Shown: positions 42,931 through 63,812, numbered from the stretch's first letter. The stretch: DNA of 64,000 bases from a virus (IMGVR_UViG_3300035181_002522:100332-164331), one strand, 5' to 3'. A program made the numbers and translations. Notes: generated by a model not told the origin, from the letters alone.

Positions 42931-43767
42931 ATGAAATTAGAAGATTTATTAGAAGCTCCAATAAAAAAGAGCTCTCAAAAGAATAGTTCAGTGAAAACTG
43001 AGGTTCAATCCTATATGTTTCAGACTAAAGAAGAGATTGAAGCATGGATGAAACAGCATTATATTAAGGGAATGGTTAGCAGAGAGTTAACCATCCATGT
43101 GACAGATACGCGGGTAACAATCTCTAGATTTGGAGTTAAAAAAGAAGACATTTTAATTCAGCATAATGGTAAGTGGGTTTTACCTGTTCAATTCTATATA
43201 GTGAGTAAATTTGACATTAGTGGTTTAAGTGTTGGTAGCTTTATTGGTTTTCCATATGTTATCAGCGAGGAATTAAAGATAGCCGATAGTGTAATCTCTG
43301 ATTTTACTGGCGTCCCAAAGGTCTGCCCAAAGATTGATGGTGATTCTCTAGAAAGAATGACTAGCTTTAGCGGATTAGAAGAAACTAATTGCAAATCACT
43401 TTACTGGAACTGCAAATCTGGAATAGACAATCTGCAAGGTTTACCTGAAACCCTACAAGAACTTTACCTAGGCATCAATAATTCTACAGTTGACATTGCT
43501 GAAATATTAGCTCAATGCCCAAAGCTCTATCAACTTAAAATTGCCGCTATGGAAGGTTCAAAGATTAAAAATGGACTTTCTTCAATCTTCAAGCACGAGC
43601 CTTTTAAAAATCCAAACACTGATATTTGGTTGAGGTCTGACCATTATACAAATGCTCAAAATAAAGAAGCAAATGAAATAATTAATGGTCATCTCCATGG
43701 CGATCACAATATGTCAAAATGTCAAACTGACTTATTTAAAGCGGGCTTTAAAGAACTTTGCCGTTAA
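42931..43767 (+). CDS. LRR-like array paralogue 1
   Basis: Degenerate LRRs; C-terminus CQTDLFKAGFKELCR; TAAATA upstream. Confidence 0.85.
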   Translation: MKLEDLLEAPIKKSSQKNSSVKTEVQSYMFQTKEEIEAWMKQHYIKGMVSRELTIHVTDTRVTISRFGVKKEDILIQHNGKWVLPVQFYIVSKFDISGLSVGSFIGFPYVISEELKIADSVISDFTGVPKVCPKIDGDSLERMTSFSGLEETNCKSLYWNCKSGIDNLQGLPETLQELYLGINNSTVDIAEILAQCPKLYQLKIAAMEGSKIKNGLSSIFKHEPFKNPNTDIWLRSDHYTNAQNKEANEIINGHLHGDHNMSKCQTDLFKAGFKELCR

Positions 43768-46343: not shown

Positions 46344-47002
46344 TTAATTCTCATTGTTAATTTCATAAAAACATTTCCAATTTTTATGATGGTTGCGTTT
46401 GCCGTTAGCTACGGCACACATTGCACTTGTATTTAATTTTTCTTTTTTACAAAAATCAGAAATACCTTTTATAATAAATTCAGCACCATTTAGATCAATA
46501 ATTTTATAAGTTTTTTGAAGACTTTGTTTATGTTTTAATCTATTGTCCGGAGAATTAAATTTAGAATTTGGATCATTCCAGTAACTTTTTATCATATTTT
46601 TCCAATTTTCTTGGTATTCACTAGAATTATAAATTGATTGATCATTTTCCCAATGAAGTTTCATTGCCTCTGACAATTTGGCTTTTACATCTAAGGTCAT
46701 GCTTTCTTGAATAGTCTTTTTTAACTTTGTTCTATACTCTTCGGAATTATAAGCATGATCTTTATTTTCTCGATGTTTTTGTTTATATTCAGCAGATTGA
46801 TATTTGGTATTTTAAAGTGATGTTGTGTCCAAGCTCTTTTGCCATGACCTTTACCAATATAGTAAGGAGTTCCAGCTTTTGCTGTATTACTATCGTTTTG
46901 GCGAACATACGCATAAATATAAAAAATAGGCTGTCCATTATCGTGCTTTTGATTCTTAAAGCAAAGACCAAGAGCTTGATAAATACTTGATGACGCCGTC
47001 AT
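46344..47002 (-). pseudogene. Disrupted GIY-YIG homing endonuclease
   Basis: FYIYAYVR...PYYIGKG in one frame; NUMOD1-like tail (FCKKEKLNTSAM...HKNWKC) in another. Confidence 0.7.
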
Positions 47003-47054
47003 TATTATCACTTTGAAAATATAATAATGATATTTATTGATTACCTGTAAGGAA

Positions 47055-47768
47055 ATGAAATTGTATGAGGTGCTTGACCAGTCCCATGATGTTAATAGGT
47101 GATTAGCACGATATGAAAGAAAAATACATAATTTAACATCTGAAACTTTTGAGCCAGGAGTATTCAATGTCAATGAAGTCTCATTTACTAACATTGCAGT
47201 ATTCAAAAAACCAATTCCAGTTCATTTTCGTACTGTTAAAATTTATTCAGTTCGTGAATGTCCAAACGTTACTAGTCTAACCCAACTGAATGTAGAAAAA
47301 ACAGATTCATTAAGTGTGCAAAATTCTGGCATTACTGATTGTGAAGGTTGTCCGGAAGCTAATATCTTAAGTTTAGATTATAATTTTAAGTTAAATTCTC
47401 TAAAAGGAATAACTCCAACTGTGACAACTTTGAATTTATTGAACTGTACTGCATTACATACGATCGACGCCGATTTGCCAAATTGTACAACTCTTAGGCT
47501 ATCTTTTTCTGGTATTGAAACGCTTTCAGGAATTCATAAACATTGTCCTAAGCTTGAATCAATCAATTTAACTTGGTATGATAATCTTAAAGCTGGATTG
47601 CTTGGATTACTAAGAATTCCAAGTTTAAAATTAGTTGAAGCAAGTACTGGCCCTGATGAGCTACTTATTGCAGTTGGACTTATCAATAAACACTTAAAAG
47701 ATAAAAATATTGGTGCGTGTCAAACAGATTTATTTAAAAGCGGATTAAAAGAATATGCTAAGCTTTAA
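47055..47768 (+). pseudogene. LRR array paralogue 2 with in-frame TGA at codon 16
   Basis: AAGGA RBS, ATG 47055, TGA 47100-47102, then open frame aligning with paralogue 3; C-terminus CQTDLFKSGLKEYAKL. Confidence 0.75.
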
Positions 47769-48516
47769 AGAGTATTTAAAAGAGGCAGAATTGACAAGAG
47801 ATGAAGTCTTACAATGGGCTCATGAAAATGATAATAAATTTCCACAGTCTATTATTACTGACGTTAATGTTGGGAAGGAACCACCTTTTTTAATTAGTGT
47901 TCACACAGTAAATTTTAATAATTTAAAAATATTCAAAAAGCCATTACCAGTTCAATTTGGTTACATTAAATTCTATTTGGCTAATGAGTGCGAATATCTA
48001 ACTGATTTAAGTCAATTGAGAGTACAAACGGCTGATTCACTTCAAATAAATGGAACTGCCATAACATCATTCAAAAATTGCCCAGAGATATTTGCCTTAA
48101 GAGCTCAAAAACTAAGAAAATTAACTACATTAGAAGGTATTTCTAAAGAAGTTAATAAAGTTGAATTAATTGGCGCTGAAAACTTAACATCAATTGATGA
48201 TGAAATGCCAAATGTAACAAGCTTTTTAGCTCCAGTCTGTGGGATTACTTCGCTAAAAGACATTCATAAGTATTTGCCAAAATTAGAAGTATTACAAATA
48301 AATTCTAATCCAATTGTTGCATCTATTTTGGGGTTATTGAAATTACAAAATCTACGAATGATGATATTTGAAAATTCTCCCAATTCACCAGCACCAAATG
48401 ATTTTATTGCGGCAATGAGAATAGTTAATGAATTTGTTATGGCTAAAAATTACAATATCTCAGAATGTCAAACCCGCTTGTTTAAGGCAGGTTTGAAAGA
48501 CTTTGCAAAACTTTAA
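47755..48516 (+). CDS. LRR array paralogue 3
   Basis: MLSFKEYLKE start; LRRs; C-terminus CQTRLFKAGLKDFAKL. Confidence 0.88.
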   Translation: MLSFKEYLKEAELTRDEVLQWAHENDNKFPQSIITDVNVGKEPPFLISVHTVNFNNLKIFKKPLPVQFGYIKFYLANECEYLTDLSQLRVQTADSLQINGTAITSFKNCPEIFALRAQKLRKLTTLEGISKEVNKVELIGAENLTSIDDEMPNVTSFLAPVCGITSLKDIHKYLPKLEVLQINSNPIVASILGLLKLQNLRMMIFENSPNSPAPNDFIAAMRIVNEFVMAKNYNISECQTRLFKAGLKDFAKL

Positions 48517-50060
48517 CCCATTAAGAAACACACATTACCTACTGGGTTTAGGTTACCTGCCTCAAAATCATTAATTTGTCGTTGCAGTTCAGTAAACATT
48601 GTTTCGGCCTTAGTAATGAGCATATCGCCATTTAGAGCTAAACCACCATTTGCGCCAGGCAAGTTAGCGTATTTGCTTCTTATCATACCCGTCATCTCTA
48701 AGCATTTTGCAAATGCCCAATCCCTTATCCATGGCTCACACCATCTATCAGTAAGCAACTCTTGTTCAGTTCGCTCCATATAGCACTCTAAAACTACACG
48801 TTCATCTTTATACAACTTTCTTAACATCTTTAATTCTCGTTTTGCTTCATCCCATTCAAATACCAATGTGCCAGCAAAGATTTTTTCAAACTCTTCAGCC
48901 ATTGAGTTAGCTAAATGAATTGACAAAATATCAATCATTGAGCCATAAAAGAATTGATTATAGAATATTTGAGCATATACTCCATTATCACCACCAAGTA
49001 CATTCATACCAATCGTACTAACACGATGAATCTTTTGAATGTCGACAATCTTATCAGTTCCAGACACTGGGTCATTAAGAAAGTAAGTCGACTGACCTGC
49101 TTTTAAAGTAAACAAAATATGACGACGATTATAAGCGCTATCTGAACGCCTTCTAAATTCGGCTAAAGCAATATTAATTGCAGTTTCAAAATTTTCTTCT
49201 TTTAACTCTGTACAAACCGCAGGATAGCCAAGTTGCGCCTTAATTGAATTTACTAGCTTGGCCCTAGAATCTAAATCACCAGTTGTTCCAACACCAATTT
49301 TTTCATAGGTTGGTGTTCCAACTTCTTCAGTATTTGCCGTCTTCCATTGAGTTCCAGTCCAAATATATAGAATATGAATATCAGTTCGATAGAAAAAATC
49401 ACCTGGATTTGGAGTTGTTGGGAATACTTTACCAGAGATTATTGTGTTGCCTGCCGCTCCATCTAATGTAGCTGAACTTGAAACATTTTGAGTAGCATTT
49501 GCTGGAATCCAAATTGCTCCATTCCACATTTGAATTGAATTTGTGGTTGGATTATAATAAACATAACCAACAGCTGGATTAGTCGGAGGAGTTGAATTTC
49601 TTGGAATATTGCCTGTATACCCTTGAACTTCAACGGATAATGGTGCTGCTTCTAAAGCATATGATTTGCAACCATATTGATAATACTGCAGTACGTTAGA
49701 GCAAGGATGTAAACTAGCATAATAAATTAGGTTTGGGTCGGCACCTGTCACTAAAACTGAGGTTGCGGTTAATGAATCTCCGAACGCCCCATATACTGCA
49801 TTGACAACCTGGGCTCCTCCAATAGTATCAGCTGGAGCTGTTAAATCGGTAGAAGCAGTATAACGAACTGAATCGACCGGTTGATGGTCAGCGGTAAGTT
49901 GCTTGGCTGCTACGACAATAACATGCCCATTATATGCCGCTGGAGTCGCTGGTAAATTCCAAGTTAGGGTAAATGAAGTTGGACTTGTTCTAACAAGCGA
50001 AAGTTGAATTGTTTGTGCTTCAGCCCAAAGGTTGGCCGTAGTGATTGGTAAATCGGTCAT
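48513..50060 (-). CDS. Neck protein (T4 gp13-like) with N-terminal extension
   Basis: IKAQLGYPAVCTEL...WIRDWAFAKC...GMIRSKY..LPGANGGLALNG. Confidence 0.85.
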   Translation of the reverse strand: MTDLPITTANLWAEAQTIQLSLVRTSPTSFTLTWNLPATPAAYNGHVIVVAAKQLTADHQPVDSVRYTASTDLTAPADTIGGAQVVNAVYGAFGDSLTATSVLVTGADPNLIYYASLHPCSNVLQYYQYGCKSYALEAAPLSVEVQGYTGNIPRNSTPPTNPAVGYVYYNPTTNSIQMWNGAIWIPANATQNVSSSATLDGAAGNTIISGKVFPTTPNPGDFFYRTDIHILYIWTGTQWKTANTEEVGTPTYEKIGVGTTGDLDSRAKLVNSIKAQLGYPAVCTELKEENFETAINIALAEFRRRSDSAYNRRHILFTLKAGQSTYFLNDPVSGTDKIVDIQKIHRVSTIGMNVLGGDNGVYAQIFYNQFFYGSMIDILSIHLANSMAEEFEKIFAGTLVFEWDEAKRELKMLRKLYKDERVVLECYMERTEQELLTDRWCEPWIRDWAFAKCLEMTGMIRSKYANLPGANGGLALNGDMLITKAETMFTELQRQINDFEAGNLNPVGNVCFLMG

Positions 50061-50153
50061 AATATAACCCTTAAAACATTAATTAATAGAGTTATTTATG
50101 AGGCCAAAATAAATAACTGTAGTTAACTCACACGCAGTATAGGACTCCTAACA

Positions 50154-51311
50154 ATGAAAATAGCAGAATTATTCGAAAATTATGAAACTGAAACCTTAGA
50201 AGAACACCTTGGCAACTTAGCCGTTGTTGATAAAAAATTCTTAAAGCTTTTAAAAACAGCGGTTGAATATAAGTACAATGGCAATAATGCACAAATGCAA
50301 AGCAAGTATGTCCAGCGTATGCCAGTTTACTTAGGTTCAAAATCAAAAGTCGATTCATACGAAACGAAATCTGGAGCTGAAGCTTATCGTCAATTAGTTG
50401 AAGATGATACCGCAAAAGCTATCGTCATCAACCATGATACTGAACAGGTTTTTGTGGCATTCAAAATTCCAGCTGACAATAGTAGAGAAAATTTTGCTTA
50501 TCTTTGGACTGCCGACATTGTTCATTTGCTTGGTCACTCAGAGCATAATGAACAATTTGAAGAAGCTAAAGCCAAGCTAGAAAAAGCAAAAATTAAAGCT
50601 TATGATAGTCCAACTGATGGTATAGTTCGTGGGAATGCTAAAGAGCTCTACGCAGCATTGACAACAATTTTTAAACTTTCTAAAGAGCTTGGACATAAGA
50701 CCGTTGATTTACATGTTATCCATGTTGATGAAGAAAGAGCTGCTACTAAAATACAGCGAGCTGCACGTAAGAAAACCCCAAACTGGTTTGAGCAAATTCC
50801 AGCTGAAATTCCAGTAAGATTAAAAAAAGATAAAGAGTTTTGGAGCAAATATGCTAAAGATGCTTTACAGTCTCGTTTGATTGATTTTAAGACGAACAAT
50901 GCTAAGGAAGCAAATACCCCAGAAGAAATGTTTAAATTGATACAAAACCATGGGTTTTTGGATAGAATAAAAGTGAATGGTTTTGTGTACAGGGTTGATT
51001 CAAGTAATTTACAATTTGACAGATTGATTAAAGCAGCTCGTGGAACAGCGGAAGAAAAAAGCCGTTATAAAGATGATAATTATATCGAATATGGTATGGA
51101 TTATCTTAATTCTGAAAATGACATAAAACAAGCTAAAATTAAAAAGCAGCTTGAAATAATGACAAAAGGTGATAAAGACCGTATGAAACAGCTTGCTAGT
51201 CAATATTTACCACCTTACAAAATTAAAGTTTATTTAAAATTAGATAAAGCTTCTATCGTTGTTGACCATGTAGATGCTGATAAGTGGATTCGCAAATTAA
51301 ATATCAAATAA
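50154..51311 (+). CDS. Late protein, possible internal head protein
   Basis: TAAATA at 50110; MKIAELFE...TLEE propeptide-like N-terminus. Confidence 0.7.
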   Translation: MKIAELFENYETETLEEHLGNLAVVDKKFLKLLKTAVEYKYNGNNAQMQSKYVQRMPVYLGSKSKVDSYETKSGAEAYRQLVEDDTAKAIVINHDTEQVFVAFKIPADNSRENFAYLWTADIVHLLGHSEHNEQFEEAKAKLEKAKIKAYDSPTDGIVRGNAKELYAALTTIFKLSKELGHKTVDLHVIHVDEERAATKIQRAARKKTPNWFEQIPAEIPVRLKKDKEFWSKYAKDALQSRLIDFKTNNAKEANTPEEMFKLIQNHGFLDRIKVNGFVYRVDSSNLQFDRLIKAARGTAEEKSRYKDDNYIEYGMDYLNSENDIKQAKIKKQLEIMTKGDKDRMKQLASQYLPPYKIKVYLKLDKASIVVDHVDADKWIRKLNIK

Positions 51312-51890
51312 TAAATTTAAACAAAAACCTTTATATCTAAATTTCCATGCTTAAGAATTGTTCAGCAAACAGATTTTTCTTGGGAGTTAAGTACACTTAT
51401 TGTCGCCGATAAAGTATTAAAAGACTATTTCGGCGACAATATTGAAATCATAATTAATGATGAAATGACTTACATTTACGTAGATTATTTCTTTGATGAA
51501 TTTAACTGTTCGTCAAAGAAATTAATCTCCATTGAAATACAGGTACAAGAATTATTGAGATTGAACAACTGTTCATCTTCTATTATTTTCAATGGCATGC
51601 CGGCTGAAAAGTTTAAATTGGATTCTTGTCGAATGCTTTCTATACACATACCGGATGAGCCAACGTCAATTAGTAAATTGAACGAATGTAACGTACTAAC
51701 CATTATTAATGCTCATCAGATATTAGGTGGTGTTTTAAGCATCTTGAAGATTAAAAATTTAGTCTCATTTACTGGTAATCGAACTGATTTTCCATGGATT
51801 GAAATTATTCAGCAATATGATTCATCAACAATTTCACAAGCGTAAACTGCTCTCTTTAATACTAGGTTTGGAAAGTTAATAACTCTATGA
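51310..51890 (+). pseudogene. Array paralogue 4 with nonsense codon in the C-terminal tag
   Basis: GGVLSILKIKNL motif; ISQA*TALFNTRFGKLITL* with TAA at the conserved Gln; start lost. Confidence 0.7.
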
Positions 51891-52084
51891 CTATAACCTA
51901 TGTCCCGTTCTGTTTCATGCCAGGGCATACAATTAATGCAATTGTAAGGGCAAAGAACTTTTATGTTGAAGGTGAGAAACTTGAAGAGCTAATCCAATTG
52001 TTTAATGAAGCAAATGATTTTGAAGTTCCTAAATTAGGTAAAAGTTACTTGGTGCCAGTAGATGACGACCTTAAACCAACTTAG
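51887..52084 (+). CDS. Small LysM-like protein
   Basis: PGHTINAIV...N...PKLGKSYLVP. Confidence 0.45.
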   Translation: MTITYVPFCFMPGHTINAIVRAKNFYVEGEKLEELIQLFNEANDFEVPKLGKSYLVPVDDDLKPT

Positions 52085-52736
52085 TCATGTAGATTATCCG
52101 TGTCTTAATATTATTTTTTCGTTGACTGAACGAAATTGTATATCTTATACTATGCAACCGTTGGGCGCAATCATTAAATTGATTGATGAAACTCTAAAAA
52201 AAGAAATTCCTAACTATAAATTCTCCGTTGGATTTGATGGTTTAGATAATTTAAGAGTTTTATATCATTTGACTCGTGAAAATGAGTGTGATTCTATCAA
52301 TTTGACTGATGTGCGAGCTGAACTTGTCAATGTGATTTATAAATTAATGGAAACATTATTTGTTGATGTAGCTGATTTTACGATTAAAGATACTTACATT
52401 TCTATGTTTTCTATTGTTCAATATAAAATTAACTATGAAAAAATAGTTTTCTTTGCTTGTGGTATGCACGGAATTTCACTTTCTGGTTTGCATAATTTTA
52501 TCGACTGCACCGTGCTTAAAATAATAACTCCTGGTAATGTCACTGGCGGAGTTTTATCGTTGTTGAAAATACCAAGCCTTCAAGCAATGTCTTTCGACAT
52601 CTTCAATTATGATGATAATCCCGAACTTATGCAGTGGACTTCTATCATTTCTTCAGAGCTTGCAGGAGAAAAAAATGTGGCAAGAGCTCAAACTCAATTG
52701 CTACGCGCTGGTCTAAAAAAGTTCGCTACTCTATAA
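52062..52736 (+). CDS. Array paralogue 5
   Basis: ISLSGLH, GGVLSLLKI, C-terminus AQTQLLRAGLKKFATL. Confidence 0.85.
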   Translation: MTTLNQLSHVDYPCLNIIFSLTERNCISYTMQPLGAIIKLIDETLKKEIPNYKFSVGFDGLDNLRVLYHLTRENECDSINLTDVRAELVNVIYKLMETLFVDVADFTIKDTYISMFSIVQYKINYEKIVFFACGMHGISLSGLHNFIDCTVLKIITPGNVTGGVLSLLKIPSLQAMSFDIFNYDDNPELMQWTSIISSELAGEKNVARAQTQLLRAGLKKFATL

Positions 52737-52793
52737 CAATTCGTTAATTTCTATTAAATATTCAATTAGCAATACACACAAGTCTAATTGGAT

Positions 52794-53450
52794 ATGTCAA
52801 TCTCATTCAAACAATTTTTAACTGAAGCTGGCGAGCCAGAGGTATCTTTAACAATACATTTTGCTCCAGGCGAATCAAAATTCAAAATACTAACAACAGA
52901 AAAAGATGAGCGTAGAGATGAACTTGAAGCTGCCATTAGTCAACTCGGCTTTAAAGTTGATGTCAACTATTTTGGTGCTGACGCTATTGAATTAAGTGTA
53001 TTAATGCTTAAAGAAGAATTTTATACTGATCCAGTTAAAATACAAGCCTTCATTAATGAAATAAAACAATATTGCGAATTGCATTTTGGCTCATCAAAAA
53101 GACCTATCATTAATGATGAATCTTCTTGGTCAATTTTAAAATTTACGACACTTCCTTCTAAATTAGTCGTCTGGGATTATATTGAAGTTGCTCCACACAT
53201 CACTAAATCAATATCTTTGTCTGGTATATATAAAGTACTTCAACCAAAAGAAACACTACTTATTGCACATTTACATGCAATTGATGATTCTATATTAGGA
53301 CTGTTTAAATTTGATAAAGAAATTGACATTTATCTAAATGGTAATAGTACCTGGTCTACAATAGTTAGAAAATATCTAAAAACTCGAGATATTACAAAAT
53401 GTCAAACCGAACTCATGAAAAATGGACTTAAACAATATGCAAAACTTTAG
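52794..53450 (+). CDS. Array paralogue 6
   Basis: MSISFKQFLTE; C-terminus CQTELMKNGLKQYAKL. Confidence 0.88.
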   Translation: MSISFKQFLTEAGEPEVSLTIHFAPGESKFKILTTEKDERRDELEAAISQLGFKVDVNYFGADAIELSVLMLKEEFYTDPVKIQAFINEIKQYCELHFGSSKRPIINDESSWSILKFTTLPSKLVVWDYIEVAPHITKSISLSGIYKVLQPKETLLIAHLHAIDDSILGLFKFDKEIDIYLNGNSTWSTIVRKYLKTRDITKCQTELMKNGLKQYAKL

Positions 53451-54123
53451 GGAATATTACGAATCAGAAGTAGAATATGGAAAGCTCTTTTATAGCATCC
53501 AATTCTTTGTTAATGTCAAATTACAATCTTTAACTGCTGCTGCCGGACAACGTGAAAATTTAGCAGTAATAAGAAACCAAATTAAAAATGCCCTTAAAGA
53601 GGTTGGTTTAGCAAGAGATACTTTTAGCTCGAATGATACTAATAAGCAATCTTTTTTTACACTAGATGTAAAGTTAGAAAATAAAAAATGGTCAAAGGCT
53701 GAATTACTAGCAGTTAAAGAGAAAACAATTAAGGCAATAAAATCTGTTCCGCAATTCAAAGACAAAGAATTTGAATTTGATAGCGACTGTATAGTTGTCA
53801 CTGGGACTTTGCATCCTAGTTCTAGTATTGAATGGGATAATGTTGATTTGGTTTATACTACTAATGAAATTTCTTTAGTTAATATTGACAAACAACTTAA
53901 AAATGTCAAACACTTGAAGATATTTTTATCATCATCTGTTTCCGTATTAGAAGGTGGTTTAGGTATCTTAAAGATGACATCTTTAAAGAGCTTCATTATT
54001 GAACTGCCAAGACCACCAGAATGGTTGAAAATAATAAAAGCACATTTTGACGCTGATAAAAATATTAGTAAAGCGCAAACTGAATTATTTAAAAACGGAT
54101 TTAAAGAATATGCAAAGCTTTAA
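53437..54123 (+). CDS. Array paralogue 7
   Basis: MQNFREYYESE; C-terminus AQTELFKNGFKEYAKL; 14-nt overlap with previous gene. Confidence 0.88.
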   Translation: MQNFREYYESEVEYGKLFYSIQFFVNVKLQSLTAAAGQRENLAVIRNQIKNALKEVGLARDTFSSNDTNKQSFFTLDVKLENKKWSKAELLAVKEKTIKAIKSVPQFKDKEFEFDSDCIVVTGTLHPSSSIEWDNVDLVYTTNEISLVNIDKQLKNVKHLKIFLSSSVSVLEGGLGILKMTSLKSFIIELPRPPEWLKIIKAHFDADKNISKAQTELFKNGFKEYAKL

Positions 54124-54751
54124 GCAATTCCTACAAGAAGAAATGAAACCAAGTGTCGTATTATTTTTAGAGCTAAGTATTAATCTTGCACTCTCAGAAA
54201 ATGCTAGTAAGTGGGAAAAAATGATTAAGACTTTATTGACTCCCAAATTCAAAGTTCAAAAAGTAACACTAACTGGTCAAAATAATAGTGTGGTGGTGCT
54301 CTTAGATGAAAGCAATAAGCATTTTACATCAGCAGAAGTTTATAAAATAGCAAAAGAAGTAAAAGAAGAATTAATTTATGATGCATCTATTGGCAGTAAA
54401 TTTCCAGAAGCTCCACTCTCTGAAATTAAACTAATAGTCAAAAATACTTTACCAAAAAATGTGACGTTAGAATTTAATACAATCTTATTGAATTTTCATG
54501 AAGCAACAAATGTTTCGTTATTGGGAATTCATGATCAATTAAAAACTGACAATGTTCACATAATTGATGTATCATCTGTTACTTCAGGTGGTTTAGGCTT
54601 AATGAAATTTAAAAAGCTGACGATTAACACATCTGGAAAGCAACCTAGTTGGGTTACCATTATAGAAAACTGCCATAAAGAAGGCAAATCGATTGCAGCG
54701 TGTCAAACAGAATTAATGAAAAATGGATTTAAAGAATATGCAAAGCTTTAA
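54110..54751 (+). CDS. Array paralogue 8
   Basis: MQSFKQFLQEE; C-terminus CQTELMKNGFKEYAKL; 14-nt overlap. Confidence 0.88.
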   Translation: MQSFKQFLQEEMKPSVVLFLELSINLALSENASKWEKMIKTLLTPKFKVQKVTLTGQNNSVVVLLDESNKHFTSAEVYKIAKEVKEELIYDASIGSKFPEAPLSEIKLIVKNTLPKNVTLEFNTILLNFHEATNVSLLGIHDQLKTDNVHIIDVSSVTSGGLGLMKFKKLTINTSGKQPSWVTIIENCHKEGKSIAACQTELMKNGFKEYAKL

Positions 54752-55499
54752 GCAATTTCTTGTAGAAAATAAAATGCCAGTTAATTCAGCGCCTTGGCAT
54801 TTAAAAACTGAAGAAGAAGTTGCTAAATTTGTCATTGATAGAAATTTACATGAAGATGGTTTCCATTCTACTTTTATTCGAAATGAAGATGGCTCATATG
54901 ACATAAAGCAATCTATAACTTTAATGCTCAATGATAATTATTTTGTAGACATTCCAGGTGGTGGGAAAGGTTTACCTTTCCCTTTTCATAGATGTCGCGA
55001 TTTTTATATTGGTGGCAATATCACAGATTTGACTGGTTTCCCTCAACACTTAGATAAAATCACCACGGTACTAATCAATGCGCCAAAGTTGAAATCATTA
55101 AAGCCTGTCCAAATTAAAACTCCAATTAACAGCATATCATTTAACTGCAATCACCTTGAAGAGTTTGGCGCATCAATTGCTATGGTTGACAGTGTTTATT
55201 TTACTGCAAATTTGATACAATTAGCTACAATGGATATTATAAAAGGTTTTACTTGCATAAATAAATCAGTTACGTTTAGCAATGAACCAGCATTCGAATC
55301 ATTTATTAAACATACTCTTACTTGGTGTAAATTAAAAGACTCGTCTGGTCATCGACCAGCATTTCATACTCTTGGCATTGCTGGCTCTACAGATGCATTT
55401 AGTGCACTTGATGTTATTAATGCGAATAGAGATAAAAACATTTCACAGCTTCAAACTTTCTTATTAAAAAACGGTCTTAAAGAATATACAAACTTATAA
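54738..55499 (+). CDS. Array paralogue 9
   Basis: MQSFKQFLVE; C-terminus LQTFLLKNGLKEYTNL; 14-nt overlap. Confidence 0.88.
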   Translation: MQSFKQFLVENKMPVNSAPWHLKTEEEVAKFVIDRNLHEDGFHSTFIRNEDGSYDIKQSITLMLNDNYFVDIPGGGKGLPFPFHRCRDFYIGGNITDLTGFPQHLDKITTVLINAPKLKSLKPVQIKTPINSISFNCNHLEEFGASIAMVDSVYFTANLIQLATMDIIKGFTCINKSVTFSNEPAFESFIKHTLTWCKLKDSSGHRPAFHTLGIAGSTDAFSALDVINANRDKNISQLQTFLLKNGLKEYTNL

Positions 55500-55718
55500 T
55501 GTTGACAAATAAAGATGAGATAAAGCAGTACTTAACCCTCCTAAAGGCTGGTCATTAGGTTTTCTTCGAATCGAAGGTACCTTTCTTCTCAAAAAGACTT
55601 CATCTAAAGCAAGTGTCGATCTGCAAAGAGCAACGATCATTTAATATGTGGACGTAATGTTGGTAAATGTCAATTAGACCTTTTTAAAAATGGCTTGAAA
55701 CAATTCGCTTCATTATAA
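55500..55718 (+). pseudogene. Array paralogue 10 remnant
   Basis: Manual translation ends RNVGKCQLDLFKNGLKQFASL*. Confidence 0.7.
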
Positions 55719-55757
55719 ATATCTTCATCCAAGCTTAACTCTATTGAAGAATATTAC

Positions 55758-57479
55758 ATGGAACTGAATCAATTAAGACAAATCACCGGCGTATCTTTCG
55801 CCCCAACCGTTCAACAACCAATCATTGTATTTGAAGACATTGAGCTGCCAACTGATTTAGTTGAAGTTCTCAGCGACTTTGCAATTGAGCTCCAAGCTAT
55901 TAGCATGTTAACTGAAGATATTCAATTAAGTTATAAGCAGATTGACCAGTTATTTCAAGATATCGAAAGTTATTTAAATAGTGATGATACCCGCGTTTCA
56001 AATAAAACTTTTTGGGGTCGTGGCATTGAAGCAATTAAGCGCAAGTTAAAGACTTTATTCGATTTAAAAGACAAAGCTAAAGTTGGACCAGTTAAAAATT
56101 ATGATAAAGTTAAAGTTGAAGCTGATAGTAAGATTGAAAAAGCTAATTTGCCACAAGAACAGCAAAATATGGCTCTTAAAACAATAGACACTCTTTATAA
56201 AGCTGGAAAACTTCACCCGTTTGCTCAAAAGTTTACAACTCAGCTCATTGGTGGTTTAGTAGCTTCTACGACATCGACAAATGCAGTAAGAAAGATTGTT
56301 ATTCCTGCCATTACTAATCAAACAAGAAAATTATTAAATGATGAATCTGGTTTAAATGGTTTAATTGAGCTTTTATTTACCGAAGCTGAAGGTCAATTGT
56401 CTGATACTTTGACAACTTTTGATGAAGTACACGCTAAATCAACAATAAAAGAAGCATTTGAAGATAACACACAATTAGCAAAAGCGATTCATAAGTATTC
56501 TAAGAAAATTGCTATTGCAACTGAAAAAGTAAAAGATAAAGTCGTTATTTCATCAATCTTTGCCTATCAGTCAGGTGATAAAATGTGGGAAGCAGCTAGA
56601 AAGAAAGCAGAACGTTCTGATAATAAGTTCTTTGTTTGGAAAAATGGCGTCTATTACGCAGGTGATGTGCAAGACATTATGGAATTAACCTTTGAACAGG
56701 TTGCTGAAAAGGTTAAAGGAATGACTGGTTCAATTTCAGAATCAATTGAACTAAATGAAAACTTTATCACGGACTTCTTTGGAAAGCTTAAAGATAAAGT
56801 TAAAAGTTGGCAAGCTAAAAAAGGTGATACCAACAATTTTTCTAGCATCATTACGTATGATAAGATTGAAAGAGCTTGGGTTAAAGCAGGTAAACCTCGT
56901 GACCTGACTGAATTACAAGATTTTTTAAGTGGTTATTTGACTAAAGCTTACGGGTCAAGTCATCATCTTGCAATTCATACAATGTTAGATAATTTCTTTG
57001 AGGAACTCCGAGATAAACTTGATGGAAAACAGCCTAATAAAGCTAATGCTGAAGAATCAAGTACAACTGATAAAGAAACTGATTCAACTGATAGTGAGCA
57101 AGAGACAACATCTACTCCGGCTGGCGCAAGCAAAGAGTTTCACCCAAGTGAAAATGATGAGGCAACTGATTCTTCCGCAACAGAAGAACCGGCTGACGTA
57201 GAATTGTCTAATGATGAAAAATCAATCTTAAAGCAGCTTTTTTATGCAATTAAGAAAGGTGCGGTTGATAAAACTTTAGCTCAAAATCCTCACAAACAAA
57301 AAGTGCTTATGAAAGCTTTACCTAAACTTTACGCAAAGCATGGAGTAGAGCTAAAAGAAGATATAAGTCAATTCAGCAAAACAATGATATTAGAGACAAT
57401 AAGAACTAAAGCTGGGTTACCAAGTACCGAACATTCTAAGCTGTTAGCAATCTTAGAAAGAGAAGTAAAATTCTTTTAG
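55758..57479 (+). CDS. Large late protein, possible internal head protein
   Basis: TATAAATA at 55714; several L/I-x-E sites (LTE, IKE, LNE, LKE); acidic linker. Confidence 0.7.
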   Translation: MELNQLRQITGVSFAPTVQQPIIVFEDIELPTDLVEVLSDFAIELQAISMLTEDIQLSYKQIDQLFQDIESYLNSDDTRVSNKTFWGRGIEAIKRKLKTLFDLKDKAKVGPVKNYDKVKVEADSKIEKANLPQEQQNMALKTIDTLYKAGKLHPFAQKFTTQLIGGLVASTTSTNAVRKIVIPAITNQTRKLLNDESGLNGLIELLFTEAEGQLSDTLTTFDEVHAKSTIKEAFEDNTQLAKAIHKYSKKIAIATEKVKDKVVISSIFAYQSGDKMWEAARKKAERSDNKFFVWKNGVYYAGDVQDIMELTFEQVAEKVKGMTGSISESIELNENFITDFFGKLKDKVKSWQAKKGDTNNFSSIITYDKIERAWVKAGKPRDLTELQDFLSGYLTKAYGSSHHLAIHTMLDNFFEELRDKLDGKQPNKANAEESSTTDKETDSTDSEQETTSTPAGASKEFHPSENDEATDSSATEEPADVELSNDEKSILKQLFYAIKKGAVDKTLAQNPHKQKVLMKALPKLYAKHGVELKEDISQFSKTMILETIRTKAGLPSTEHSKLLAILEREVKFF

Positions 57480-60224: not shown

Positions 60225-60682
60225 CAACACTGACACACCCATTAGAAACTGTGTTTAATATAGCGCCAGGTTCAACAAAAAATTTACCTGCAGAGTATGA
60301 ATCCCAAAATCTTGCAGAATATACTGAGATTCCTGCTGAGGTAGTTGCCCAGGACCATAAGGATGACGCTGAGGACATTGATATTAATGATAAGATAGAA
60401 ACCATTTATGAATTTGCATTGACTGCCTATGAGAACCAGACCGCCTTTGCCGAGATAGCAGAACCACGCTATGCTGCTCGTAATGCTGAAGTAGCAGCTC
60501 AATACTTAAATGCAGCGTTAAGTGCGGTGGCATTGAAGTCAAGAAACAAGAGTGATAAGCGTAAAAGCAAGCAGTTTATTCCGTTTAACACGAACATCTC
60601 AAATAGCAATGTAGTTGTTACTGATCGAAACAGTATCATGCAAATGATCGCTGAAAAGAAAAAAATGCAAGAAGGTTCATAA
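60221..60682 (+). CDS. Probable terminase small subunit (T4 gp16-like)
   Basis: EPRYAARNAEVAAQYLNAA and NSNVVVTDRNSI; position after gp4. Confidence 0.55.
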   Translation: MTTLTHPLETVFNIAPGSTKNLPAEYESQNLAEYTEIPAEVVAQDHKDDAEDIDINDKIETIYEFALTAYENQTAFAEIAEPRYAARNAEVAAQYLNAALSAVALKSRNKSDKRKSKQFIPFNTNISNSNVVVTDRNSIMQMIAEKKKMQEGS

Positions 60683-61710
60683 TGATAAGCTTTAAACAAT
60701 TTTTAAATGGGGTTAAAGAACAAATGAAGATATGTAATTTATTTGAACAGGAAATAGTTTATCATAATGATATTACGGTTCCAAAGTCATGTAAGTCGTT
60801 GTTCGAGTTAGTAAATTTGTTTCCTGGCTATCAGCCCGGCTGCAAAGTTAGTGGTAACTTTTCTTGTCATGGCTGTACATCTTTGACATCTCTAGAAGGA
60901 GCACCTAGTTCAGTTGGCGGTAACTTTTCTTGTTGGGATTGTACATCTCTGACATCTCTAGAAGGAGCTCCTAGCTCAGTTGGCGGTAACTTTTATTGCC
61001 ATCGCTGTACATCTCTGACATCTCTAGAAGGAGCACCTAGTTCAGTTAGTGGTGACTTTTTTTGTGGTGATTGTTCATCTTTGACATCTCTAAAAGGAGC
61101 TCCTAGTTCAGTTGGCGGTGACTTTTTTTGTGGTGATTGTTCATCTTTGACATCTCTAAAAGGAGCTCCTAGCTCAGTTGGCGGTAACTTTTCTTGCGCT
61201 GACTGTACATCTTTGACATCTCTAGAAGGAGCACCTAGTTCGATTAGTGGTGACTTTTCTTGTTATGGCTGTACATCTTTGACTTCTCTAGAAGGAGCTC
61301 CTAGTTCAGTTAGTGGTAACTTTTTTTGTTATGGCTGTAGATCTCTGACATCTCTAAAAGGAGCTCCTAGTTCAGTTAGTGGTAACTTTTCTTGTGCTAA
61401 CTGTACATCTTTGATATCTCTAGAAGGAGCACCTAGTTCAGTTGGCGGTAACTTTTCTTGTCACGGCTGTAGATCTCTGACATCTCTAGAAGGAGCTCCT
61501 AGTTCGATTGGCGGTGACTTTTCTTGTTATGGCTGTACATCTTTGAGAAAGCCAATCTTAAGTTTACTCAAAATAAAAAAATTAAAAAAAATAATCTACG
61601 ACAATGCGGATGTGCAAGCTATAGTAAATGGGCATATGCAAGACAAAAATATCGCAGCGTGTCAAACTGAATTAATGAAGAACGGATTTAAGGAATATGC
61701 AAAATTATGA
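60682..61710 (+). CDS. Tandem 22-aa LRR protein, copy 1 (11 CxxC units)
   Basis: GNFSCxxCTSLTSLEGAPSSVG repeats; MISFKQFL start; array C-terminal tag. Confidence 0.92.
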   Translation: MISFKQFLNGVKEQMKICNLFEQEIVYHNDITVPKSCKSLFELVNLFPGYQPGCKVSGNFSCHGCTSLTSLEGAPSSVGGNFSCWDCTSLTSLEGAPSSVGGNFYCHRCTSLTSLEGAPSSVSGDFFCGDCSSLTSLKGAPSSVGGDFFCGDCSSLTSLKGAPSSVGGNFSCADCTSLTSLEGAPSSISGDFSCYGCTSLTSLEGAPSSVSGNFFCYGCRSLTSLKGAPSSVSGNFSCANCTSLISLEGAPSSVGGNFSCHGCRSLTSLEGAPSSIGGDFSCYGCTSLRKPILSLLKIKKLKKIIYDNADVQAIVNGHMQDKNIAACQTELMKNGFKEYAKL

Positions 61711-62064
61711 TGAATACCAAAGCTGATATGACACATGATGAATATTTCACATTACCCGTTAGTAATCATTGTTGGTAATTTTGATAACAGCAACATGGTA
61801 GAAGCTGAAGAAGTGTATATCTCTAAAATAAAAATTAATTTACAAGGAATACAAAAGATGTTAAGATGTTCTAAGATTAAAATTTTGGACGCAAGAACAA
61901 TTGAAGCTGGAGCTCTATCGCTTCTAAAAATTCAAGGTTCACAACATATTTCATTTGGTGGAAGTACAAATAATAGACCAGAATGAACTAAGATTATTAT
62001 GAATCACTTGAATGTAGTGGTATGTCAAATTGAATTACTAAAAATGGGGTTAAAGAACAAATGA
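61707..62064 (+). pseudogene. Decayed array paralogue, spacer copy 1
   Basis: INLQGIQK, AGALSLLKI and CQIELLKMGLK fragments with frameshift and stops. Confidence 0.7.
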
Positions 62065-63518
62065 AGATATGTAATTTATTTGAACAGGAAATAGTTTATC
62101 ATAATGATATTACGGTTCCAAAGTTATGTAAGTCATTGTTCGAGTTAGTAAATTTGTTTCCTGGCTATCAGCCCGGCTGCAAAGTTAGTGGTAACTTTTC
62201 TTGTTATAACTGTACATCTTTGACATCTCTAGAAGGAGCTCCTAGTTCAGTTGGTGGTAACTTTTCTTGTTGGGATTGTACATCTCTGACATCTCTAGAA
62301 GGAGCACCTAGTTCAGTTGGCGGTAACTTTTCTTGTTATAACTGTACATCTTTAACATCTCTAGAAGGAGCTCCTAGTTCGATTAGTGGTAACTTTTCTT
62401 GTTATAACTGTACATCTTTAACATCTCTAGAAGGAGCTCCTAGTTCGATTAGTGGTAACTTTTCTTGTTGGGATTGTACATCTCTGACATCTCTAGAAGG
62501 AGCACCTAGTTCAGTTAGTGGTAACTTTTCTTGTGCTAACTGTACATCTCTGACATCTCTAGAAGGAGCACCTAGTTCAGTTAGTGGTGACTTTTTTTGT
62601 TATGGCTGTACATCTTTAACATCTCTAGAAGGAGCACCTAGTTCAGTTGGCGGTAACTTTTCTTGTTATAACTGTACATCTTTAACATCTCTAGAAGGAG
62701 CTCCTAGCTCAGTTGGCGGTAACTTTTCTTGTTATAACTGTACATCTTTAACATCTCTAGAAGGAGCTCCTAGTTCGATTAGTGGTAACTTTTCTTGTTG
62801 GGATTGTACATCTCTGACATCTCTAGAAGGAGCACCTAGCTCAGTTGGTGGTAACTTTTCTTGTTATGACTGTAGATCTCTGACATCTCTAGAAGGAGCT
62901 CCTAGTTCAGTTGGTGGTAACTTTTTTTGTTATGGCTGTACATCTTTAACATCTCTAGAAGGAGCACCTAGCTCAGTTAGTGGTAACTTTTCTTGTGCTA
63001 ACTGTACATCTTTGACATCTCTAGAAGGAGCACCTAGTTCGATTAGTGGTAACTTTTCTTGTTGGGATTGTACATCTCTGACATCTCTGACATCTCTAGA
63101 AGGAGCACCTAGTTCGCTTGGTGGTGACTTTTCTTGTCATGGCTGTACATCTCTGACATCTCTAGAAGGAGCACCTAGCTTGGTTGGCGGTGACTTTTCT
63201 TGTCATGGCTGTACATCTTTGACATCTCTAGAAGGAGCACCTAGCTTGGTTGGCGGTGACTTTTCTTGTCATGGCTGTACATCTTTGACATCTCTAGAAG
63301 GAACTCCTAGTTCGATTGGTGGTGACTTTTCTTGTCATGGCTGTACATCTTTGAGAAAGCCAATCTTACGTTTACTCAAAATAAAAAAATTAAAAAAAAT
63401 AATCTACGACAATGCAGATGTGCAAGCTATAGTAAATAGGCATATGCAAGACAAAAATATCGCAGCGTGTCAAACTGAATTAATGAAGAACGGATTTAAG
63501 GAATATGCAAAATTATGA
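62061..63518 (+). CDS. Tandem 22-aa LRR protein, copy 2 (18 CxxC units)
   Basis: Caps nearly identical to copy 1; seven extra repeats plus a TSL duplication. Confidence 0.92.
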   Translation: MKICNLFEQEIVYHNDITVPKLCKSLFELVNLFPGYQPGCKVSGNFSCYNCTSLTSLEGAPSSVGGNFSCWDCTSLTSLEGAPSSVGGNFSCYNCTSLTSLEGAPSSISGNFSCYNCTSLTSLEGAPSSISGNFSCWDCTSLTSLEGAPSSVSGNFSCANCTSLTSLEGAPSSVSGDFFCYGCTSLTSLEGAPSSVGGNFSCYNCTSLTSLEGAPSSVGGNFSCYNCTSLTSLEGAPSSISGNFSCWDCTSLTSLEGAPSSVGGNFSCYDCRSLTSLEGAPSSVGGNFFCYGCTSLTSLEGAPSSVSGNFSCANCTSLTSLEGAPSSISGNFSCWDCTSLTSLTSLEGAPSSLGGDFSCHGCTSLTSLEGAPSLVGGDFSCHGCTSLTSLEGAPSLVGGDFSCHGCTSLTSLEGTPSSIGGDFSCHGCTSLRKPILRLLKIKKLKKIIYDNADVQAIVNRHMQDKNIAACQTELMKNGFKEYAKL

Positions 63519-63812
63519 TGAATACCAAAGCTGATATGACACATGATGAATATTTCACATTACCCGTTAGTAATCATTGTTGGTAATTTTGATAACAGCA
63601 ACATGGTAGAAGCTGAAGCTGAAGCTGAAGCTGAAGCTGAAGCTGGAGCTCTATCGCTTCTAAAAATTCAAGGTTCACCACATATTTCATTTGGTGGAAG
63701 TACAAATAATAGACCAGAATGAACTAAGATTATTATGAATCACTTGAATGGCAACAAGAATGTAGTGGTATGTCAAACTGAATTACTAAAAATGGGGTTA
63801 AAGAACAAATGA
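63515..63812 (+). pseudogene. Decayed array paralogue, spacer copy 2, with (GAAGCT)6
   Basis: Near-identical to 61707-62064 apart from an internal replacement and a 9-nt indel. Confidence 0.7.

Follow-up and report, generated by a model that had tools for sequence, protein, structure and literature searches.

What does it mean that several gene boundaries in one stretch of viral DNA consist of the same 14-nt overlap, which encodes the end of one protein in one frame and the start of the next protein in another? The stretch analyzed here (the window) comprises 64,000 nt, positions 100332-164331 of the IMG/VR virus record IMGVR_UViG_3300035181_002522, and is the final 64 kb of that 164-kb record. 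The record is AT-rich (35.6% GC) and is estimated to be 46% complete, which would put the full genome at about 350 kb. Among the genes of the window are tail and neck genes of T4 type, for the sheath, the sheath stabiliser, the tube, the head-tail adaptor and head closure, and the phage is a giant, T4-like one. An earlier, sequence-only reading proposed that a conserved junction of ~50 bp supplies a C-terminal tag, translational coupling and an N-terminal signal together, and that recombination between junctions could add, drop or swap complete cassettes. Our own overall reading, to which we assign a probability of about 0.68, is that the boundary is a stereotyped, multiply coded element in arrays of genes for proteins that are likely loaded into the virion, with exchange occurring at the C-terminal module and the leader.

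The degenerate 14-mer ATGCWAARCTTTAR has four exact matches in the window, at 47755, 53437, 54110 and 54738, all on the plus strand. The mean number of matches in shuffled sequences was 0.01 and none of 100 shuffles reached four, which confirms the four overlaps reported earlier. Pattern matching and reading of the two frames returned YAKL-stop over MLSFK at the first junction (47755-47768, ATGCTAAGCTTTAA), over MQNFR at the second (53437-53450, ATGCAAAACTTTAG) and over MQSFK at both the third (54110-54123, ATGCAAAGCTTTAA) and the fourth (54738-54751, again ATGCAAAGCTTTAA). The first junction connects gene A (47103-47768), a family member identified by the hidden Markov model (HMM) of the C-terminal module (72.8 bits), to gene B (47755-48516, 253 aa, leader MLSFKEYLKE). 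The other three connect genes D (52794-53450, 218 aa), E (53437-54123, 228 aa; recognized by the same HMM), F (54110-54751, 213 aa, leader MQSFKQFLQE; HMM and structure model) and G (54738-55499, 253 aa), the last intact gene of the overlapped chain, which ends ..EYTNL. All these genes lie on the plus strand.

The upstream open reading frames (ORFs) finish ..EYAKL or ..QYAKL, with stop codons ending at 47768, 53450, 54123 and 54751. The downstream ORFs begin in the +1 frame, at an ATG that lies 14 nt before the end of the stop codon and arises from the TA(T G)CN of the upstream Tyr-Ala codons. The two readings claimed for the overlap, YAKL-stop and M(Q/L)(S/N)F(K/R), are thus both borne out by the sequence. 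The three degenerate positions (W, R and R) are synonymous in the upstream gene (GCA/GCT, AAA/AAG and TAA/TAG), and the same positions alter leader residues in the +1 frame (Q/L, N/S and K/R). In gene B a stop two codons upstream leaves the overlapping ATG as the sole possible start. The genes at 53437 and 54738 have an alternative in-frame ATG 15 nt upstream, created by the KNG codons. We rejected this upstream ATG (MDLKNMQSF..) as the true start in general, because a stop is found at this place in gene B and in several relatives; the upstream ATG is also disfavored by the free-standing leaders, which begin one or two residues before SFK. Conservation of the junction extends from ~60-65 nt before the stop to ~15 nt after it, with hardly any variation in the last ~45 nt, so that the ~50 bp proposed earlier was about right. 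Neither promoter-like (sigma-70) nor terminator-like sites rise above chance (49 versus 50.8, and three versus 5.2, in shuffled sequences).

Degenerate-pattern scans of viral and metagenome contigs returned 61 usable loci, in which we identified the 3' ends of family genes by HMM. We obtained 79 non-redundant family gene ends from these 61 contigs, 62 of which overlap the next start by either 14 or 4 nt, and 17 of which do not overlap. The 14-nt overlap, TAT GC(A/T) AAR CTT TAR, is found at 18 ends and is always followed by an MxSFK leader. Here the codons are constrained: Tyr is TAT and Leu is CTT in 18 out of 18 cases, Ala is only GCA or GCT, and the stop is TAA in 17 cases and TAG in one. 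At the other 44 overlapping ends the overlap is ATGA (Leu TTA or CTA, followed by TGA), with an MKIxEL leader in 37 cases and other MK.. starts in seven, and the Tyr/Phe and Ala codons vary freely. Ten different contigs contain the 14-nt form, which must hence be old and maintained. With its codons fixed in these 18 junctions, the junction is to be seen as an element that has been selected for dual coding rather than as an accident of one locus, in support of the earlier reading.

The two geometries differ also in the signals for ribosome binding. A Shine-Dalgarno (SD) core lies in the upstream codons -6/-5 (mostly K-E, AAG GAR), ~12 nt before the ATG, in 32 of the 44 ATGA junctions and in none of 21 14-nt junctions, which have AAA GAA or other residues at these positions. 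The same difference is detectable within single arrays (L010, L011 and L023), where the SD core is present in 12 out of 14 ATGA junctions and in zero out of nine 14-nt junctions. The arrays in L011 and L023 are composed of at least 12 consecutive family genes each, with both junction types mixed; residues -6/-5 before the stop are K-E in their ATGA junctions and RQ, SK, AK, HQ or NQ in their 14-nt junctions. The embedded SD may thus account for part of the 'KE' conservation. We infer a ribosome-binding site proper to the ATGA form, whereas the 14-nt form would depend on ribosomes terminating upstream; the geometry of both forms is consistent with translational coupling.

The two peptides encoded by the overlap belong to different parts of the protein. 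A motif scan of the whole record identified ten ORFs ending ..CQxxLxxxG(L/F)Kxx(A/T)xL-stop, all in its last 17 kb and none in its first 100 kb. An outlier (42931-43767) and a truncated copy (51465-51845) were recognized by the HMM in addition, for a total of at least 11 family copies in the window. Outside the last ~70 residues the paralogs are 16-35% identical. A profile of the last 80 residues retrieved 1,108 representative clusters at 50% identity among 1.8 billion proteins, typically 200-230 aa long and with the module at the extreme C-terminus. Many of the homologs derive from Logan, and among these are apparent orthologs of genes B, D and G. Scans of ten array genes returned no family match to Pfam or PHROG; the leucine-rich repeat (LRR) model LRR_4 of Pfam scored 22.6 bits in gene A and 19.3 bits in gene B, below the cut-off of 27, and did not match the other genes. 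A word-indexed homolog search with gene F found only two proteins, and neither megablast of 47000-56000 nor tblastn of gene F matched any INPHARED phage.

The AlphaFold model of gene F has a mean predicted local distance difference test (pLDDT) score of 85, rising to 92-98 over the last 90 residues. From the N-terminus on, the model shows a short helix and a variable domain of alpha/beta type; LRR-like beta-alpha turns follow, and YAKL forms the end of a three-helix cap. Foldseek found no match to this model in the PDB at E <= 0.001, and a search of the ESM Atlas gave nothing usable. VIA-align matched the variable N-domain only, to a generic ferredoxin-like alpha/beta fold (Z <= 8.3). The best structural matches in BFVD are ~10 viral proteins with neighboring UniProt accessions (A0A8D4G*/A0A8D4K*), which probably represent another set of paralogs in one sequenced virus. 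According to the model, YAKL closes a conserved folded domain of ~60-75 aa (pLDDT above 90), and the C-terminal tag proposed earlier is the wrong picture. We also rejected the overlap as the cause of YAKL conservation, since the ATGA class and the ends that overlap nothing conserve YAKL just as well. Each protein is built of a leader of ~10 residues (M-x-S/N-F-K-x-F/Y-L-x-E in this phage), a variable body, LRR-like turns and a helical C-terminal cap with a consensus ending in ..CQxELxxNG(L/F)KEYAKL.

The leader is the part that the downstream frame of the overlap encodes. Two leaders account for 101 out of 120 full-length representatives, 49 with M-x-(S/N/T)-F-K-x-(F/Y)-L-x-E and 52 with M-K-(I/L/V)-x-E-L-F-E, and several of the other 19 carry variants of them. 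The capsid-targeting sequence (CTS) of phage T4 is MKTYQEFIAE (PMC8442874), in which residues 4 and 7 are the main ones for targeting and residues 8 and 10 for processing, with the protease gp21 cutting after L/I-x-E (PMC9026906). Four leaders of the window (MQSFKQFLQE, MQSFKQFLVE, MLSFKEYLKE and MSISFKQFLTE) match the T4 CTS in the aromatic residues 4 and 7, in L/I at 8 and in E at 10. Among 42 MxSFK-type representatives, [LIVMF]-x-E ends at residue 10 or 11 in 35, and 12 have leaders that are incompatible with the overlap, such as MKTFK and MHSFK. Leaders that are not overlapped keep the peptide with other codons, as seen in gene D (MSISFKQFLTE; codons TCA TTC AAA) and in gene I, which is preceded by a non-family gene. 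Because these copies use different codons, selection acts on the leader as a peptide. The leader is also present on proteins without the C-terminal module, namely a GNAT acetyltransferase and three neighbors, the 385-aa gene at 50154 and a phosphoribosyltransferase (PRTase)-domain protein in L007. The N-terminal motif that was earlier taken as a signal is a portable leader: it matches the key positions of the T4 CTS and occurs on unrelated proteins too.

Two of these loci merit description. Locus L071 (G000:C1:29561-32512, minus strand) is a run of four overlapping genes with the leaders MKITELFE, MISFKQFL, MTSFKEYLQE and MTTFKEYLVE. All four lack the C-terminal module, one of them encodes the GNAT acetyltransferase, and the locus may be a second cargo locus. 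The PRTase-domain protein at L007:4650-5474 has the leader-like start MNFKHYLS and is conserved in L008 and L006; its gene sits immediately after the family array and before the large terminase.

Experimental information on the family comes from RsoM2USA, a 343.8-kb Ralstonia jumbo phage that is matched by the consensus-like representative P0100. The HMM returns four module matches in its genome, and ORFs 88, 89 and 90 carry the module with scores of 43-59 bits (43 bits for ORF89). ORF89 begins with MKTFKQFLSE, which is nearly the T4 CTS, and has a computed mass of 28.56 kDa. The ORF89 protein (28.57 kDa) is among the abundant virion bands identified by liquid chromatography with tandem mass spectrometry (PMC8504454). 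RsoM2USA also encodes a Peptidase_S77 (103 bits), and a profile scan of our record detected a Peptidase_S77, that is, a gp21-type prohead protease, at G000:C1:73619-74056 on the minus strand (71.8 bits versus a cut-off of 27). ORF89 is the sole experimental anchor of the family and attests to the virion presence of one homolog, neither to its head location nor to its processing. The family proteins are most likely loaded into the virion, and by analogy with T4 they would be targeted to the head and cleaved.

A different role for the leader, in initiation (through an A/U-rich start), in secretion or in assembly outside the head, with the proteins acting as cytoplasmic effectors or as parts of the tail or baseplate, appears unlikely to us. 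The match to MKTYQEFIAE falls on exactly the four positions that have been functionally mapped and is still closer in ORF89, both phages encode gp21-type proteases, the leader is found on unrelated GNAT and PRTase enzymes, as expected of a portable targeting signal, and the peptide is conserved with different codons where nothing overlaps it. Such roles would nevertheless suit the position of the array, whose neighbors are neck, sheath and tube genes and not head genes, as well as the LRR-like bodies, which would be appropriate for adhesins. They would also agree with the RsoM2USA proteomics, which shows no more than that ORF89 is in virions.

How the leader could come to lie on the end of another gene may be read from its codons. 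The leader codons TTT-AAR hold an out-of-frame TAA preceded by xTT, which would allow the leader to slide onto the YAKL end, so that TAT GCA AAG CTT TAA would also read ATG CAA AGC TTT AA. The 14-nt overlap covers leader residues 1-5 only, of which, by analogy with T4, M1 and the aromatic residue 4 alone would be critical. In RsoM2USA the boundary between ORFs 90 and 89 (..CTATGAAAACATTTAAACAATTC) is an ATGA overlap followed by MKTFKQF. The 14-nt form could have originated from a loss of ~10 nt that moved the TAA of the leader onto ..TATGCAAAR.

Arrays of this kind do expand by tandem duplication, as in genes I and J, with a third copy at the window end, and in g3-g5 of L011. The junctions might therefore be a passive relic, alike only through recent duplication of a gene together with its boundary, the overlap having no function beyond compactness. 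In the window, module codons -22 to -5 are shared by junction genes at 53 out of 64 positions versus 33.4 expected, and by non-junction genes at 30 out of 56 versus 27, and this excess among the junction genes would fit recent descent. The bodies flanking the four junctions, however, have 19-35% protein identity and unalignable DNA, and the same 14-mer with its fixed codons recurs in ten contigs, which largely refutes the idea. Moreover, codon choice differs by junction class, including the SD core within single arrays, and every variable position is synonymous in the upstream gene. A passive origin is therefore quite improbable. A programmed +1 frameshift at CUU-UAA-G that would fuse cassette n to cassette n+1 (..EYAKL-KQFLxE..) for cutting at L-x-E by the prohead protease is in our view extremely improbable. 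In its favor, CUU-UAA-G is a prfB-type +1 shifty heptamer, CTT-TAR is invariant in 21 out of 21 14-nt junctions, the +1 frame is that of the leader and the L-x-E site lies 4-6 residues beyond the shift point. However, none of the 21 has an SD core within 24 nt, so that the SD-like stimulator expected 3 nt before CUU is missing. The stop (TAA, rarely TAG) has A or G as its next base, a context in which UAA terminates efficiently, in contrast to the UGA-C of prfB. The need for Phe-4 in the leader, a residue that non-overlapped leaders keep as well, fully accounts for the invariant CTT. Shifty sites are absent from the ATGA class, which is the commoner one, and in every case an in-frame ATG is present.

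We also compared arrays between relatives. The arrays of L011 and L023 are 81-88% identical and mostly collinear. One cassette has been swapped between them, a 119-aa gene with an MKI leader versus a 250-aa gene with an MQSFK leader, and the two are unalignable. Sequence identity ends 7 nt before the upstream stop and returns 66 nt before the stop of the cassette itself, and the terminal codons of the upstream gene switch with the cassette (TTATGA versus CTTTAA). Copy number differs as well (g3-g5 versus h3-h4). The orthologs g10 and h9 share 89% identity over the 300 nt that precede the module and 76% over the last 66 nt, whereas g10 and its paralogs g7 and g11 are 56-58% identical in the body and 92-94% identical in the last 66 nt; a similar pattern is seen for g9/h8. 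These alignments show gene conversion that is restricted to the module.

What recombines is the homology island made up of the C-terminal module in full length (~65 nt) and the leader, and not the 14-mer. Between otherwise unalignable paralogs, module and leader form an island of nucleotide identity of 60-80 bp, at which paralogs exchange by gene conversion and cassette replacement, as seen in the relatives. A crossover at this island would regenerate an intact end, stop, start and leader. The addition, loss and exchange of cassettes by recombination at junctions, as envisaged by the sequence-only reading, therefore holds in part. In the L011/L023 replacement the edges lie at the junction and in the C-terminal module, conversion is restricted to the last 66 nt, and cassette content and copy number do vary between these two relatives. 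Other changes use other sites, including a deletion in L008 by microhomology within a gene and the duplications of the LRR genes; the boundary of the I/J/K duplication unit lies ~27 nt after the start of gene I, and the third LRR copy is at the window end.

It may be that recombination at these boundaries was selected for rather than merely tolerated. In the most far-reaching form of this idea, the junction would be a recombinase-free, integron-like cassette linker for injected cargo, each exchange would swap a complete, expressed and packageable effector, and the 14-nt form would have been selected for this purpose. We put this forward tentatively and regard it as doubtful. If it were true, exchange at junctions within a phage or between co-infecting phages would insert, delete or swap whole effector genes, and the overprinted 14-nt form would make the expression of each cassette strictly dependent on its neighbor.

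Several observations weigh against our overall reading. L005, the closest relative of the window with 99.7% identity, does not differ from it in any cassette. Between L008:107-411 and L007:3548-4495 a deletion of 626 nt lies between two copies of GAAATTATT, a 10-nt microhomology inside the gene. The excess of shared codons among the junction genes could stem from recent duplication. Breakpoints within sequence that is conserved family-wide can be placed only coarsely, and their mapping to the junction is partly forced by that conservation. Translational coupling is deduced from geometry alone, and the counts over contigs are phylogenetically non-independent. That the proteins of this phage are packaged in the head, cleaved after L-x-E and ejected is drawn from their sequences and from analogy, and the RsoM2USA data speak to the presence of one homolog in the virion and not to its location or processing. 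Finally, unlike the internal proteins of T4, the family members share a large conserved domain.

The remaining family genes of the window, all on the plus strand, are more heterogeneous. The outlying member at 42931-43767 (278 aa; 44.5 bits with the C-module HMM) has a diverged C-terminus and, in the leader scan, an MKLEDLLE leader; it sits between the tail-sheath and sheath-stabiliser genes. Gene B ends ..DFAKL and no gene overlaps its end. The leader scan also identified the 385-aa non-family gene (50154-51311), which has a leader of the second type (MKIAELFE) and no C-module match. The truncated member at 51465-51845 matches HMM positions 2-36 only and lacks the last ~25 positions of the module. 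Gene C (52062-52736, 224 aa) has no recognizable leader and ends ..KFATL. Further downstream, gene I (60682-61710) is an LRR-rich member with a non-overlapped MISFKQFL leader and an ATGA overlap with the next ORF. Gene J (62061-63518) is a recent duplicate of I, and its start, MKICNLFEQE, overlaps a decayed family member by ATGA.

Some of these genes show signs of decay. Gene A ends ..EYAKL and, when aligned to gene B, lacks the leader and ~45 N-terminal residues; it abuts a minus-strand ORF of homing-endonuclease type. At 46344-47206 (minus strand) two adjoining ORFs resemble a split or decayed homing endonuclease, one with a GIY-YIG-like motif (46721-47206; ..YIYAYV..YYIGKGHGKR..) and the other with a match to a PHROG HNH/homing-endonuclease family (46344-46700), and these homing-endonuclease-like ORFs overlap the 5' end of gene A. 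Remnant H (55608-55718) is a 36-codon relic of the C-terminal module, and its stop overlaps TATAAATA, which resembles a T4 late promoter. This box has five copies in the window, all on the plus strand; the copy at 55714-55721 is the only one within 40-64 kb and lies 37 nt 5' of a 573-aa gene at 55758, not in front of the array. Between the LRR genes, 61707-62060 and 63515-63800 hold a decayed family member (..GALSLLKIQG..CQIELLK..), the truncated end of which overlaps the next LRR gene by ATGA. Its second copy contains an expanded run of the hexamer GAAGCT at ~63608-63640. In L008, which is otherwise 99.7% identical to its relative, the family gene with the deletion later gained a frame break and represents a decaying cassette.

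T-even phages diversify their injected anti-defense proteins (IPI-III, more than 30 variants) at two small loci, and how such cargo is recruited is partly understood. The family described here is a much larger, unannotated and cargo-like one in giant T4-related phages; it has more than 1,100 clusters, and a genome can contain as many as 12 or more copies in tandem. In its arrays the gene boundary itself would be a device for both shuffling and expression, in two interchangeable and multiply coded forms. The 14-nt form is a clean natural case of overprinting, with two conserved peptide motifs on shared codons, and the junction provides a rule for annotating start codons in such arrays. Since RsoM2USA is cultured, its ORFs 88-90 allow capsid targeting in jumbo phages, coupling without an SD and exchange at a coding linker to be tested.

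The closest counterparts are the internal protein (IP) loci of T-even phages, which encode many unrelated injected proteins with the CTS alone in common (PMC3012670, PMC12373910). The family resembles T4 IPI, IPII, IPIII and Alt in having a leader of ~10 residues with the same key positions, portable onto unrelated proteins, and further in the gp21-type protease, in the many variable paralogs concentrated in few loci and in the virion-borne homolog. The T4 proteins, however, share the leader only, whereas most members here also share the folded C-terminal domain of 60-75 aa and LRR-like turns. In T4 the genes are separated by promoter and stem-loop elements, and here they overlap through a coding linker; targeting and cleavage are, in our case, predictions.

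A second counterpart is offered by the promoter-early stem-loop (PeSL) cassettes of T4-type phages, in which conserved intergenic units of ~100 bp flank exchangeable ORFs (Arbiol et al. 2010, PMC2839356). The same paper cites T4-type recombination as needing less than 50 bp of homology, and analogous shuffling elements at T-even IP loci (Repoila et al. 1994) are described in PMC2839356 and PMC3012670. In both systems variable genes are separated by a conserved repeat of tens of bp, which here too would offer homology for inserting, deleting or replacing whole genes with their expression signals kept intact. PeSL, however, is an intergenic promoter-terminator, and the linker here codes in two frames and contains stop, start and, in the ATGA class, the SD. 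Mini-circles or other intermediates are not known for the linker here. Like the coupled stop/start overlaps (ATGA, TAATG) of bacterial and phage operons, the arrays form a co-directional chain, and the ATGA class is the textbook form, with the SD in the upstream coding sequence. Unlike them, the 14-nt overlap encodes conserved peptide motifs in both frames, with codons that are fixed across diverged genomes and no SD. To the reading of the family as packaged cargo, the present analysis adds the rule of two junction geometries, the embedded SD, the virion-borne homolog and the mosaicism of the arrays.

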